From Promethearchaeia archaeon (GTDB taxonomy: Archaea; Asgardarchaeota; Lokiarchaeia; Sigyniarchaeales; SOKP01): DNA of 64,000 nucleotides. The first letter of the stretch is position 1. Each line of letters begins with the position of its first letter. The notes below the pieces were generated by a model, which was not told the DNA's origin, made no database searches, and worked only from the letters and a program-made list of their open reading frames with translations. The stretch lies in the NCBI GenBank assembly GCA_029856045.1, contig JAHQWG010000048.1, positions 1-64,000 on the forward strand, read 5' to 3'. Below are positions 57,971-63,044 of the stretch, piece after piece. The translations under genes were made by a program, and so were the position numbers.

Positions 57971-59551
57971 ATGTCTAAACAAGAAGATATAATTGCTGGA
58001 AAGTTAATTGGTAAAACAACAACACACACGGTTAATTTGTTAATTGTGGATAAAAATGTAGGACGAAATGATCATTTGGTAATTTATACTGATTCTGATA
58101 GTAATGAAGACAAAAATTATTATTTATTTAAGATAATTGATATCTGGAATGATAAACAAGGATTAATGGCAACACTAAAAGTTCTCGGCCATATGCCGAA
58201 AAGACCCTTTAAGATTGGAACAGAAGTTTATCTTGCTAAAAAGAAGCAAATCATAGAAACTTTAGGGATTGATAATCCCGAAGAAGAATCATTATATTTT
58301 GGGTCACTACTCGGTTATTCTAAATATGATGTGCACTTATTAATAAAAAATTTTGGTAGAATTTTTATTACGGGTAAATCTGGCTCGGGTAAATCATATA
58401 CTATGGGAGTGTTAATTGAAGAATTCCTCAAAAAAGGAATCCCTGTAGTCATTTTTGATCGACATGGTGAATATTCAAGTTTAAAAATTTCTAGAGAAAT
58501 TTCAGAATCTGATGAAGAAATCCCTGCTGAAGATTCAGAACCTGAATATTGGGATATAAGTAAATCTTCAGAACCAATTGAAGAATTAACAAGTATTACT
58601 TCAGATTCCGAAATGGAAATTCCAATTGAAGAATTAGAAAAGGAAAAAATAAATCCCAGTGAATTTGTTGAAAAAATAATAGAATTTGCTGATTTGAATA
58701 TGAATGAGGGAGCGGATGTGGACATAAAATACATTTTTTCTTTAGATGCAACTGATTTAGTATCTTCAAATTTATGTACAATTATAAATTTTAGAGGTTT
58801 ACCATTGGAACTTCAAGAGGTTATTGCCAATGATATTCTTATGAAATTATATAATGCAAGCACCTCAAAACAAATTCAGCCATTCTATCTTTTTATAGAT
58901 GAGGCTCATCTTTTTGCAGGTAAAAAAAAAACAGACACATCTGAAACTGTAAAACTATTTTCTCAAGAAGGAAGGAAATTTGGAGCAAATCTCGTTATCT
59001 CTACTCAAAAACCCCAATTATTAGATGTTACGATAAGAGGTCAGGCAGGAACATGGATAATACATCAATTAACTGATATTAGAGATGTTGATATAACTGT
59101 TTCAAGTGCTGAAGATTTAGGTCCAGAATATAAAGAAGAAATTCAAAGATTAGACCCAGGTGAATGTATAATTTGTGGCGATGCCGTTAAGATAGCACCG
59201 TTATTTCTAAAAATTAGAAAACGAAAAACCGAACATGGAGGTATAGGATTTAATCCTCTCGATTTTCTTTCCAAAGACACTATTGAAGATATAAAGAAGA
59301 AAAGACTAAAAATTTTAGAAGCCAAATCAGAAGGTGAATTGGCAGAAGCGGAAAATCTCTTTCAAAAATATTTTACTGGAAAAGAAATACAAAAATCGGC
59401 TAAAGAAATAGAACTTTTAACAAAAATGATTGAAGAATTAGATGCTGAAGTTAAAATATGGAAAGATAAATATAAAAAACAAAAAGAAAAGGCAAATAAA
59501 GCTACAAAATTAGCAGAAGAAGCTTTAATTGAAGCAAAGAGAAAATCTTAA
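57971..59551 (+). CDS. HerA/DUF87-family ATPase
   Basis: N-terminal HAS-barrel-like region, GKSGSGKS, DRHGEY, FIDEAH, EGRKFG, STQKP, HGG. Confidence 0.9.
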   Translation: MSKQEDIIAGKLIGKTTTHTVNLLIVDKNVGRNDHLVIYTDSDSNEDKNYYLFKIIDIWNDKQGLMATLKVLGHMPKRPFKIGTEVYLAKKKQIIETLGIDNPEEESLYFGSLLGYSKYDVHLLIKNFGRIFITGKSGSGKSYTMGVLIEEFLKKGIPVVIFDRHGEYSSLKISREISESDEEIPAEDSEPEYWDISKSSEPIEELTSITSDSEMEIPIEELEKEKINPSEFVEKIIEFADLNMNEGADVDIKYIFSLDATDLVSSNLCTIINFRGLPLELQEVIANDILMKLYNASTSKQIQPFYLFIDEAHLFAGKKKTDTSETVKLFSQEGRKFGANLVISTQKPQLLDVTIRGQAGTWIIHQLTDIRDVDITVSSAEDLGPEYKEEIQRLDPGECIICGDAVKIAPLFLKIRKRKTEHGGIGFNPLDFLSKDTIEDIKKKRLKILEAKSEGELAEAENLFQKYFTGKEIQKSAKEIELLTKMIEELDAEVKIWKDKYKKQKEKANKATKLAEEALIEAKRKS

Positions 59552-59574
59552 GAATTTAAATGCTTCGATTACAC

Positions 59575-60957
59575 TTATTTTTTTTTAAGTAATTTTTTAA
59601 TCTCTTCAATTTTATTGGTAGCATTTTCTAAATCATACTTCAATTTTTTCATTTGTTTATTGTAATCATTTTGTTTAATTTTTCCGTCTCCTTTCTTTTT
59701 CTTAAGGAAGTTAATTAAATTCTTAACTGAATTTATTTTACTCTCTAATCCTTCTAATTCAGCATTTAATTCTTTTTTAGACTGTTTCTTTTTTGTTGAA
59801 GGCATTCCTTTCGGTCTTGGGGGTAACGGCTTTTCAGTTGATGGTTTTTTAGGTAATTCAGTTAATTCTGATAATTCATTGTCCTCTTCAACGGTTTCCG
59901 CTTCAACTTCTCTTTTTAATTTCTCAAAATCTATTCCAAGATCTGGGGCTTCTTCTAACTGTGGCGGTTGTTGAACCTTTTCTTGCATTTCTTTGATTGC
60001 CTGTAATTCAATGATTTCATCTTCTGATCCGATTACTGAATCTATTAATTTATTTACAACATCACTTAAAGCATTTAATTCATCTAATACTGAATACAGA
60101 GTCTGTATAAGGTCACTTTTTGAGGAGATTTTAATTTCTGACTTTACCGTAATTGGGGAATACATTTGAGAACCAACCTCCCCTTCAGCATCAGAAAGTG
60201 AAGGATGTAAACTTGAACCATAACCCAGTCCAGGTTTTTTGGATGGAATTGTAGAAATCCCTTTTTTCTTCATTGTTAATCGATATTCAGAAATCAACCA
60301 AGTAAATAAATTTAAGGCAAGTTTTTTATGTTGATCATTTTCAATTCCACAGCCAATCTCATCTCTAAATATTTCATAACTACCAATTGCACATACTAAT
60401 CCATTATCAGCTTCTGATACAATTATCAAAGGAACTGAGAAGGGATCTGCATCTTGATCACTCATTGCAATTGGAACAGAACCCCCAATTGTTGTAAGAG
60501 AACAACCCGCACGATAGCAAATTTCATTAATTTCTTCAGTGATTTGATGAGGTGGTGTAAATGTAGAGGCTTTTGGTAAATTTTCCATGCCATAATTATT
60601 AGGTGAAAGCACTTGATCATTTTCAAATGTAATTCCAAACCGTTCCGCTAGAGCGGAAAGGTTAGTTTGACGACCCTTATCACCTCCAGCATGACTTAAT
60701 AATAATAATCCACCACCATCTTCTCTCACCCAATTCTCAATCTCATTTATTTCCTGAGGTGCAATCTTTGCAAAATCAGGACAAGCAAACACCAAAATAT
60801 CGTAAGGTTTTAGAGTTTTATGGGTAATTGGAAATTCTGAAAATTGATATGATTCAAAACCTTGAGAATCCAAGAGTTGTTTTATCGTTTTGTAGTTGAT
60901 ATCAATTCTCCCTCTTGGTTTATGGCTCTCATTCCAAGCTATGAAATTTCCAACCAA
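59575..60957 (-). CDS. GIFT (IFT52/GldG/DUF4350)-like domain with coiled coil, Pro-rich linker and C-terminal hairpin
   Basis: ESH, YDILVFACP....EINEIENWV..GGGLLLLSHAGG...TNLSALAERFGI.F.ND, VCAIGS..IF.D, NLFTWL; no signal peptide or TM. Confidence 0.78.
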   Translation of the reverse strand: MVGNFIAWNESHKPRGRIDINYKTIKQLLDSQGFESYQFSEFPITHKTLKPYDILVFACPDFAKIAPQEINEIENWVREDGGGLLLLSHAGGDKGRQTNLSALAERFGITFENDQVLSPNNYGMENLPKASTFTPPHQITEEINEICYRAGCSLTTIGGSVPIAMSDQDADPFSVPLIIVSEADNGLVCAIGSYEIFRDEIGCGIENDQHKKLALNLFTWLISEYRLTMKKKGISTIPSKKPGLGYGSSLHPSLSDAEGEVGSQMYSPITVKSEIKISSKSDLIQTLYSVLDELNALSDVVNKLIDSVIGSEDEIIELQAIKEMQEKVQQPPQLEEAPDLGIDFEKLKREVEAETVEEDNELSELTELPKKPSTEKPLPPRPKGMPSTKKKQSKKELNAELEGLESKINSVKNLINFLKKKKGDGKIKQNDYNKQMKKLKYDLENATNKIEEIKKLLKKK

Positions 60958-61075
60958 TTGTTAAAAGTCACCTTTTTTCATTAAAAATAAAAATTATATA
61001 AATAATCAATAAATCTTCTTGCTTTAATCTTTATTTTTATTTCATTTAAAATTTTATTTCAATTCTGACGTTTAA

Positions 61076-62200
61076 TTATTTATCATTGTTTAAAACTAGT
61101 TGGCATTTATCGCCAATCATCAAATTATCTTTAGAAAGATTATCAATTTTAACATAACTCCCGATAATTGAATTTTCTGTAATTATATTTGAGAGATAGG
61201 CGCCATCTTCGATTATGCAATTTTTTAAGATACATTTCTTTAATTTACAATTTTTACCAATCGAAACATATGGTCCAATAATAGAATGAGTAATTTCAGT
61301 GTTTTCTTCAATATTTACTGGTGTGTTAATTACGCTATATTTGAAATTTCCATATTGTGTTGGGGATTTTTCATTTATTTGAGCCATATGCTCTAATATA
61401 TAGCGGTTGCCTTTCAAAAGTTCGGTAGTTCTCCCAAAATCCAAAATCCCTTTTTTCAATTCGACTGCAGCGATTTTGTAGTTTTGATCTATCAAATCTT
61501 GAAGTGCTGGAGTCATATAAATTTCACCAGAATCTTCAGATTTGTTGTCCAAATAATTTTTTATGTTGTTAAATAAAGCTTTGGTTGTTTTTCTACTAAA
61601 TGCATAGATTCCTGCGATTGCCAGATCAGAGATAAATTCCTTAGGCTTCTCAACCAAATTCTTGATTATCATATTATCATCAACAGACACAATTCCATAA
61701 GAACTAGCTTCTTCTTTTGGAACTCTCATAACGGTTATTATTCCATCCACATCTGATTCATAATATCGATATAAAATAAATGAATACTCATCAAGTGGAA
61801 TCATATCACCTAAGAAAATCAAACATCCATCTTTTTTTTCATTTATACTTTTTTTATTTAAATCATCTTCTTGAAAATTGAATTGTTTCTTGGCTAGATA
61901 AATAGCTTCGCCGAGACCCCAATAATATGGTACATCTCCATCAAAACCTCTGGGAGTTTGTTCAATAAATGTTAAATTAAAATCCTTTGAGTAATTTTTA
62001 TTTATGTAATCAATTATTTGCTCTTTCTTATAACCAACGATCAATATTAATTCGGTACTCTGATCGAATGTGTCTTTTAATTTATCTAAAATGTGATCTA
62101 AGACAGTCTTTCCTGCAACTTTGATAAAAGCCTTAGGTTTCTTAAAAGTAAAAGGTCTTAAACGCGTTCCTGTGCCTGCTATTGGTCCAATAATTTTCAT
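61076..62200 (-). CDS. Sugar-1-phosphate nucleotidyltransferase (long-form RmlA-like)
   Basis: AGTGTRLRPFT..KPK, FLGD, YGIV, VEKP, AGIY, GEIY.T, C-terminal left-handed beta-helix. Confidence 0.92.
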   Translation of the reverse strand: MKIIGPIAGTGTRLRPFTFKKPKAFIKVAGKTVLDHILDKLKDTFDQSTELILIVGYKKEQIIDYINKNYSKDFNLTFIEQTPRGFDGDVPYYWGLGEAIYLAKKQFNFQEDDLNKKSINEKKDGCLIFLGDMIPLDEYSFILYRYYESDVDGIITVMRVPKEEASSYGIVSVDDNMIIKNLVEKPKEFISDLAIAGIYAFSRKTTKALFNNIKNYLDNKSEDSGEIYMTPALQDLIDQNYKIAAVELKKGILDFGRTTELLKGNRYILEHMAQINEKSPTQYGNFKYSVINTPVNIEENTEITHSIIGPYVSIGKNCKLKKCILKNCIIEDGAYLSNIITENSIIGSYVKIDNLSKDNLMIGDKCQLVLNNDK

Positions 62201-62267
62201 ATTAAGGATACAATTCTTTCTATGCTATTTTTATAAAAAAATCTTTAAAATTTAAAACTATTTTTAT

Positions 62268-63044
62268 TCAATAAAACTCTGATTTATCCGAATCAAAAAT
62301 GCGTTGAAGAGTCCCAAATAAAATGTCTAAACCATCCTCTCTTAACGTTGTGATTGGAATTAATTCAGATGTAGAGCCGAGTTGAGAAAATACTTCGGAT
62401 ATTAAAAGAGATAATTCACGTATTAAACCTTTTTCCCTTTCATTGGTAGCTTCACTTAATTTTTGAAAGTCTGTGCTCCACTCGAGAACCATATCAATTA
62501 AATCATCATCTAATAAATCGATTTTGGAAAGAGCGTTAATTTGTGGAATATTTATAAAACGATATTGAACTGAAGCAGCTAATAGCAGGGTAGAAATAAA
62601 CCCATTCGGTCGTTTTACCATATTGGAATCAAATAAAAAAGTTGTTGATCTCTGAACATCACCGAAACCTAAGGAACTTGCGATAATTGGACCCACTTCC
62701 CTGAAAGCAAATAATTCTAACTGACCTGCAGTGTCAATTAAAACCCAATCAGGTTGATATTGACCGATTTCATACTTAATATCGTCAATAAAATTTATCA
62801 TTAGATCCGAGGCTAAAACCATCCCTCCATTTGGACCTAAATTATACTTCCTCATAACTTCATCTAACGTGATATAATCCCTTATATCAATCTCTGGATT
62901 AAACTTTAAATCTAAAGCTCCCGGATCCAAGTTAATTGCAATTACAGTTATTTCTGAATCTCTCATCGAGATGTAGTGTTTTAACTGAGCAACCAATGTG
63001 GATTTTCCGCTTCCGGCAGGTCCGATTACATAATTAAATAACAT
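62268..63044 (-). CDS. GPN-loop GTPase
   Basis: GPAGSGKST, INLDPG, DIRD, LGPNGG, IDTAGQLELF, LSKIDLL. Confidence 0.95.
   Translation of the reverse strand: MLFNYVIGPAGSGKSTLVAQLKHYISMRDSEITVIAINLDPGALDLKFNPEIDIRDYITLDEVMRKYNLGPNGGMVLASDLMINFIDDIKYEIGQYQPDWVLIDTAGQLELFAFREVGPIIASSLGFGDVQRSTTFLFDSNMVKRPNGFISTLLLAASVQYRFINIPQINALSKIDLLDDDLIDMVLEWSTDFQKLSEATNEREKGLIRELSLLISEVFSQLGSTSELIPITTLREDGLDILFGTLQRIFDSDKSEFY

Follow-up and report, generated by a model that had tools for sequence, protein, structure and literature searches.

A soluble GIFT-domain protein of Asgard archaea with an IFT52-homologous head: a probable non-enzymatic scaffold

Introduction

Why would an archaeon without cilia or intraflagellar transport (IFT) carry a protein that resembles this subunit of the ciliary transport machinery? 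The question is raised by a reading frame of 460 amino acids in a 64,000-nucleotide stretch of DNA (the window, ~30% G+C) from a Loki-type Asgard archaeon, which an initial annotation had described as an IFT52-like, cytosolic GIFT-domain protein. IFT52 (OSM-6/BLD1) belongs to the IFT-B1 core and its structure has been solved (PDB 5FMR, 5FMS and 8BD7 chain B). The IFT52 GIFT head contacts the TPRs of IFT88 and the coiled coil of IFT57/38, residues 271-370 lie as extended motifs in TPR solenoids (those of IFT88 and IFT70 hold the central extended region), and the C-terminal domain pairs with IFT46 (PMC9753473). It was shown that the N-terminal domain, IFT52N, has no catalytic residues and binds no sugar, and that K130 and R204 (Chlamydomonas numbering) are required for the association of IFT-B1 with IFT-B2 (PMC4818760).

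A full-text search found no paper that joins IFT52 with Asgard archaea, and no paper describing the GIFT family analyzed here was found in the library searched. Nine papers there name both IFT52 and archaea, none of them on an archaeal IFT52 homologue according to their titles and abstracts. We know of no described prokaryotic relative of this IFT-B core subunit beyond the general GIFT superfamily. In this paper we looked at the gene, at the structure predicted for its product and at its relatives, and we ask how special the likeness to IFT52 is and what it may say about function.

The gene and its genomic setting

The coding sequence spans positions 59575..60957 of the minus strand and comprises 460 codons and a stop, as given by the ORF list and its translation. 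The start must be the TTG at 60957, since a TAA closes the frame two codons further upstream and residue 5 already opens the conserved first β-strand. A putative TATA-like box, TTTATATAA (61002-60994), and a putative ribosome-binding site, GGTGA (60972-60968, 10 nt upstream of the start), can be read in the sequence before the gene (60966..61002, minus strand). The host genome of 3.34 Mb in 55 contigs is 100% complete by marker genes. An identical 460 amino acid protein is already on record, and a word-index search retrieved 549 relatives, every one labelled Lokiarchaeota or Promethearchaeota under various names; nearly all are called 'hypothetical' and all have a precomputed PF23355 match. 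We conclude that 59575-60957 is a genuine gene, that its product is soluble and cytoplasmic, and that the family of this product is kept in Asgard archaea.

Convergent with the GIFT gene, across a gap of 23 nt, lies a gene for a HerA/DUF87-type ATPase of 526 amino acids (57971-59551, plus strand). Behind its Walker A region this protein carries an acidic insert, and it ends in a Lys-rich coiled coil, in which no similarity to the tail of the GIFT protein was found. An AT-rich inverted repeat at 59526-59571 (11-nt arms, 91% complementary, 24 nt apart) covers the stop codon of the HerA-like gene and the short gap to the stop of the GIFT gene, and it may be a shared terminator-like hairpin of both genes.

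Directly upstream on the same strand (61076-63044, minus) are genes for a GPN-loop GTPase (PF03029, 189 bits) and for an NTP_transferase that ends in a left-handed β-helix (LbH) and shows weak eIF2B-epsilon/GlmU-like matches. The order GPN GTPase, NTP_transferase/LbH and GIFT is conserved in three Loki-family genomes (including contigs L007 and L008), with a homocitrate-synthase-like gene as the fourth member. In other Asgard lineages it was not found around 13 orthologues, within flanks of 1-1.5 kb. Since this order is kept only among Loki-family genomes it says little about the role of the protein, and we dropped a functional tie to the neighbor genes. On the related Loki contig L007, a second, stand-alone GIFT gene of 241 amino acids (L007:9491-10216, plus strand; PF23355, 43.6 bits) directly follows the orthologue; in the present window its place is taken by the HerA-like gene.

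The GIFT head

Residues 1-232 (60262..60957, minus strand) make up a GIFT domain, which has a class I glutamine-amidotransferase-like fold without the catalytic triad. Within it, residues 20-121 match the Pfam family PF23355 (IFT52_GIFT) with 45.1 bits and E 8e-12, the curated gathering cut-off being 27.2 bits. PF23355 ranks first both here and in each of the 14 orthologues that were scanned, above PF09822, PF14258, ThuA and OST48_N, and in ten orthologues of other Asgard lineages it reaches 45-100 bits and leads the other families by 14-63 bits. By Pfam the protein is therefore not a generic GldG or DUF4350 member, since it scores 23.2 bits on PF09822 (GldG/ABC_transp_aux; cut-off 34.7 bits) and 18.7 bits on PF14258 (DUF4350; cut-off 30.4 bits). 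Some orthologues of other lineages do pass the PF14258 cut-off, with up to 42 bits, yet always under their own PF23355 score. In the source annotations the relatives appear as 'hypothetical', 'DUF4350' or 'GldG family'.

A search against solved chains returned IFT52 (Chlamydomonas and mouse) as the only match, at E 1.4e-6 when the single sequence was the query and at 4e-10 when the query was a Loki-family profile. An Asgard-wide profile built from 19 heads found the IFT52 chains at 2e-24, 1e-23 and 1.5e-21 (89/87/80 bits) and no other solved chain below E 0.05; its match spans residues 9-247 of mouse IFT52, which is the whole domain. The predicted head shares its fold with solved IFT52N over that same extent, and IFT52 is also the best match in the fold search, where glycosidases, OST48 and ThuA-like proteins rank next. 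[quoted passage not shown] It had been proposed that the N-domain tracks IFT52; the Pfam, solved-sequence and fold searches agree with this, and the profile alignments reproduce every motif pair that had been quoted for it. Residues 1-232 form a GIFT domain, and this domain is a homologue of the one at the N-terminus of eukaryotic IFT52.

Fifteen residues are invariant in the Asgard-wide alignment (G16, L29, P60, K64, E69, G81, G92, D93, G95, N99, P172, G186, G192, Y194 and G204), and nine of them also occur in IFT52 (P60, K64, E69, G81, G92, N99, P172, G186 and G192). None of the invariant positions is a Cys, Ser or His. The Cys-His-Glu triad of class I glutamine amidotransferases, whose Cys sits at the nucleophile elbow after strand 4, is absent, and this elbow, which we placed after strand 83-87 from the secondary structure of the predicted model, reads H, D, L or N followed by Ala. 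Given this lack of invariant Cys, Ser and His, and that IFT52N itself has neither catalytic residues nor sugar binding, the protein is unlikely to be an enzyme.

The two basic residues that IFT52 needs for IFT-B1/B2 association are not found in the archaeal head: in the profile alignment Chlamydomonas K130 and R204 fall on non-basic positions, at about N126/L127 and V175.

The tail

The GIFT head is followed by a Ser/Pro/Gly-rich linker (residues 233-274; 60136..60261, minus strand) that is predicted to be disordered, with pLDDT below 50 at 242-274, and that varies in length and sequence. Next comes a conserved long helix at about residues 275-330 (59968..60135, minus strand), which extends from 280 to 328 in the model and follows the pattern I-K-I-S-x-K-S-[DE]-L ... 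N-x-L-I; in 40 Loki-family orthologues S278, K280, L283, L287 and I305 are nearly invariant. A second low-pLDDT, apparently disordered linker, acidic and Pro-rich, covers residues 331-392 (59782..59967, minus strand), with 15 Asp or Glu and 10 Pro among its 62 residues.

Near the end of this linker stands the sequence LPPRP (residues 378-382; 59812..59826, minus strand). Of 119 full-length Loki-family homologues, 95 have the form LPP[KR]P and 100 the looser form LP[PTA][KRA]P, which turns up in 17 of 5950 shuffled tails; from these frequencies we conclude that LPP[KR]P is a real short linear motif.

The last part of the protein is a Lys-rich helical hairpin (residues 393-460; 59578..59781, minus strand), modelled as helices 394-423 and 429-459 with pLDDT of about 90. 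Orthologues of the Loki, Frey/Jord and Thor types have kept this hairpin; in other Asgard lineages the helical tail is of another kind and often includes a Pro-containing motif at the corresponding place. The coiled coil, Pro motif and hairpin that had been pointed out in the tail are indeed conserved features among the Loki-family orthologues. Because the tail differs so greatly between the Asgard lineages, a single conserved partner for it appears doubtful.

In Pfam scans of 30 tails the hairpin matched generic coiled-coil families only. We considered whether it could be a SHOCT domain or a Vps23 'steadiness box' and rejected both; Vps23_core was not recurrent and Vps28 chains came at E 0.6. 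A second copy of the hairpin was not found elsewhere in the host genome. A complex prediction for two copies of residues 385-460 (score 0.01) speaks neither for nor against self-association.

Comparison of the tail with that of IFT52 gives no homology, and only the GIFT head is common to the two proteins. No PF23352 (IFT52_central) match is present in the protein, and the sole one in the genome (16.9 bits, below the cut-off) lies on another contig and is broken by stop codons. PF21178 (Itf52_C) matches neither the protein nor anything in the marker-complete host genome, and for IFT46 (PF12317, IFT46_B_C) no match was obtained there at E up to 1. On this comparison of sequences the protein is best classed as a member of the IFT52_GIFT domain family and not as an IFT52 orthologue.

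Cellular location

The protein has no signal peptide or transmembrane segment, and no membrane-grade hydrophobic segment occurs in it or in 39 aligned Loki-family orthologues. The five orthologues of other lineages and the four small paralogues that were checked lack a hydrophobic N-terminus; in one orthologue of the f5 type there is a helix of borderline hydrophobicity, close to the C-terminus only. All non-Asgard relatives sampled (from Halobacteriota, Bacteroidota and Planctomycetota) carry an N-terminal signal or anchor, one of them also a PGF-CTERM. The initial annotation had noted that many prokaryotic GIFT proteins are exported. The sampled bacterial relatives add VWA, BACON/Ig-like or GDSL-lipase modules. 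The description 'cytosolic like IFT52' holds, since the family lacks an export signal and every sampled non-Asgard relative has one; the GIFT protein is thus predicted to be cytosolic, unlike each of them.

Distribution and paralogues

Of the 151 Asgard genomes sampled, 147 have PF23355 matches, and 14 control genomes gave no match. At orthologue level, defined as at least 250 bits with the Asgard-wide head profile, the family is present in 85 of the 151 genomes and in 60 of the 73 high-quality ones, nearly always as a single copy. Such orthologues occur in 13 of 27 sampled Asgard families and were not found at that score in several others; named holders include Promethearchaeota, Frey/Jordarchaeia and Thorarchaeota, and a next, lower-scoring tier has Njordarchaeia and Helarchaeales proteins among its members. 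In three orthologue matches of the Asgard family f5 (G097:C177, G115:C108 and G068:C150) a single in-frame stop, TGA or TAA, interrupts the GIFT head, perhaps through a sequencing error or because the copy is decaying.

The host genome has six PF23355 loci, that is, five besides the present gene (contigs C27, C55, C36 and C8; L001, L002, L004, L005 and L006). Three of the five are small cytosolic proteins of 306, 368 and 273 amino acids, and two are domains in frames of 1332 and 1623 amino acids. The small cytosolic Asgard paralogues (about 300-370 amino acids; L001 and L002 here) have the same kind of cytosolic GIFT head, with PF23355 on top at 40-54 bits and 26-28% identity to the present head, but they differ in having no long linker, no LPP[KR]P and no C-terminal hairpin.

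Is the likeness to IFT52 special to this family?

A best match to IFT52 does not by itself tell whether the cytosolic Asgard family stands closer to IFT52 than other GIFT proteins do. We therefore ran the same solved-chain profile test on four further prokaryotic GIFT groups, of which three are exported, and for all four the first solved match was again IFT52. The exported giant/Methanofastidiosia-type profile (A7) matched it with 90/88/74 bits, as compared with 89/87/80 bits for the cytosolic Asgard family, the small cytosolic Asgard paralogues with 77/75/65, the exported Halobacteriota-type profile (A6) with 66/64/64 and the bacterial exported profile (A8) with 61/59/56. On PF23355 the exported giants score 59-80 bits, and Halobacteriota and bacterial DUF4350-type proteins at most 33 bits.

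Five metagenomic examples of the giants (P0218, P0239, P0260, P0262 and P0248) are exported proteins of 820-2400 amino acids with a GIFT domain at 59-80 bits on PF23355, and some of this type are annotated as PKD or β-helix repeat proteins. The one A7-type organism that could be identified is a member of Methanofastidiosia. An Asgard origin of the A7-type giants was considered and rejected, as they were not found with an orthologue-level score in the 151 Asgard genomes sampled.

The search in the opposite direction points the same way. An exhaustive search with the family profile gave 6693 proteins at E up to 0.001, and the best 150 of the prokaryotic clusters listed all reach at least 127 bits, compared with 80-89 for IFT52. 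Since at least 150 prokaryotic clusters score higher, IFT52 is not the nearest relative of the family. The best 150 consist of about 64 orthologue clusters, then of small cytosolic proteins and GIFT domains in exported giants; some exported GIFT proteins, with single-domain scores of 120-185 bits, are thus nearer to the family than IFT52 is. In other phyla, with genomes gathered by a universal 16S primer pattern (101 for each), the best match to the family profile was 55 bits in Planctomycetota, 75.5 in Bacteroidota and 89.4 in Halobacteriota.

The Halobacteriota protein that gives this best non-Asgard match (89 bits; L155:781-2430, minus strand) is an exported protein of 549 amino acids with a signal peptide and a PGF-CTERM anchor, a surface GIFT protein in the S-layer style. 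Exported GldG/ABC_transp_aux (PF09822), DUF4350 (PF14258) and giant-surface-protein GIFT domains belong to the same superfamily as the present protein, and they differ from it by signal peptides or membrane anchors, PGF-CTERM, and PKD or β-helix modules. In the listed part of a midpoint-rooted, prokaryote-only tree of 185 GIFT domains, the cytosolic Asgard orthologues appear to cluster together, with the small cytosolic paralogues adjoining them and the exported groups outside.

Exported and bacterial GIFT groups match IFT52 as well or nearly as well as the Asgard family does, so the resemblance is a graded trait of the prokaryotic, and especially the archaeal, GIFT radiation and not a mark of the cytosolic Asgard family. 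Being common to that wider radiation, it is on its own no eukaryotic signature. The earlier proposal of an archaeal relative of a ciliary-transport subunit must therefore be divided: the head is a true homologue of the IFT52 GIFT domain, and a special tie to IFT52 is not borne out. The family may be regarded as a candidate source of the IFT52 head.

What the protein may do

The explanation that fits our data best, and that we consider probable, is that this is a soluble, non-enzymatic scaffold or adaptor with an IFT52-homologous head. A folded head joined to about 230 residues of mostly disordered tail, which holds a helix, a Pro motif and a hairpin, is the anatomy of an adaptor. The GIFT head would serve as a protein-binding platform, and the linear motif and the helical tail would recruit partners or drive assembly. 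In such a mechanism the likeness to IFT52, a GIFT head followed by extended motifs, would be analogous and not demonstrably ancestral, and the family would be one cytosolic branch of the wider prokaryotic GIFT radiation. Against a scaffold speaks the strong conservation of the polar residues K64, E69, D93, N99 and Y194 together with a Gly-rich loop, AGGDxG, which could point to a site for a small ligand and not to a surface for proteins. The GPN-loop GTPase and the sugar-nucleotidyl-transferase-like neighbors could also hint at another role.

These last points lead to a different proposal, in which a generic GIFT/DUF4350-type head binds or processes a carbohydrate or another small molecule, in connection with the nucleotidyl-transferase neighbor, and the likeness to IFT52 has no functional meaning. 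GIFT-fold domains do occur in the glycosidases, OST48 and ThuA-like proteins that come next in the fold search, some relatives carry the NCBI names DUF4350 or GldG family, the gene order recurs in three Loki-family genomes, and the invariant polar residues lie, to judge from the model, in loops after strands, which is the usual place for a ligand in this fold. Yet PF09822 and PF14258 stay below threshold while PF23355 is always on top, the synteny was not found outside the Loki family, a conserved nucleophile is missing, IFT52N binds no sugars (PMC4818760), and it is adaptors, not enzymes, that typically have a long and disordered tail bearing a linear motif and a coiled coil. We regard this proposal as improbable. 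A chance open frame or a mis-called gene, to which a TTG start and the ease with which AT-rich DNA yields long frames might lead one, can practically be dismissed; it is refuted by hundreds of conserved homologues with the same architecture, by a confident domain model and by single-copy orthologues across the phylum.

A further possibility is that the GIFT head of IFT52 descends specifically from the cytosolic Asgard lineage, which would make the family its direct archaeal forerunner; the head, the extended motifs and the helical tail would then have formed a scaffold for complex assembly already in the time before cilia. In favor of this, the Pfam, solved-sequence and fold searches all rank IFT52 first, IFT52 has nine of the 15 residues that are invariant Asgard-wide, and the family occurs widely among Asgard archaea as a single copy. 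Moreover, both proteins are cytosolic and similar in length, and in both the head leads through a Pro-containing linker to a helical end (for IFT52, PMC9753473). This is opposed by the control profiles, in which exported A7 equals the Asgard family against IFT52 and A6 and A8 follow, by PF23355 scores of up to 80 bits in exported groups, and by the many prokaryotic clusters that the family profile scores above IFT52. The tails are not homologous, the genome searches did not find IFT52_central, Itf52_C or IFT46, the family has not kept K130 and R204, and orthologues of at least 250 bits were not found in several Asgard families. A direct forerunner is therefore unlikely in our judgement, and the scaffold or adaptor with a homologous head remains the reading that we prefer.

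Significance

What is new here is a cytosolic prokaryotic GIFT protein with a tail of its own; the GIFT superfamily was already known. The control profiles of other GIFT groups guard against over-reading the likeness to IFT52. The most far-reaching option, which we think has only a small chance of being right, is that the cytosolic Asgard GIFT family is the lineage that gave the head of IFT52, the backbone of IFT-B1, and was already a head-plus-linear-motif scaffold for solenoid or coiled-coil partners. If this were true, the origin of the non-coatomer part of the intraflagellar transport machinery would have a first anchor point among prokaryotes. An Asgard protein that is soluble, widespread and single-copy and has a head of the IFT52 type offers a concrete candidate for expression, for structure determination and for use as bait in cultured Loki-type archaea.
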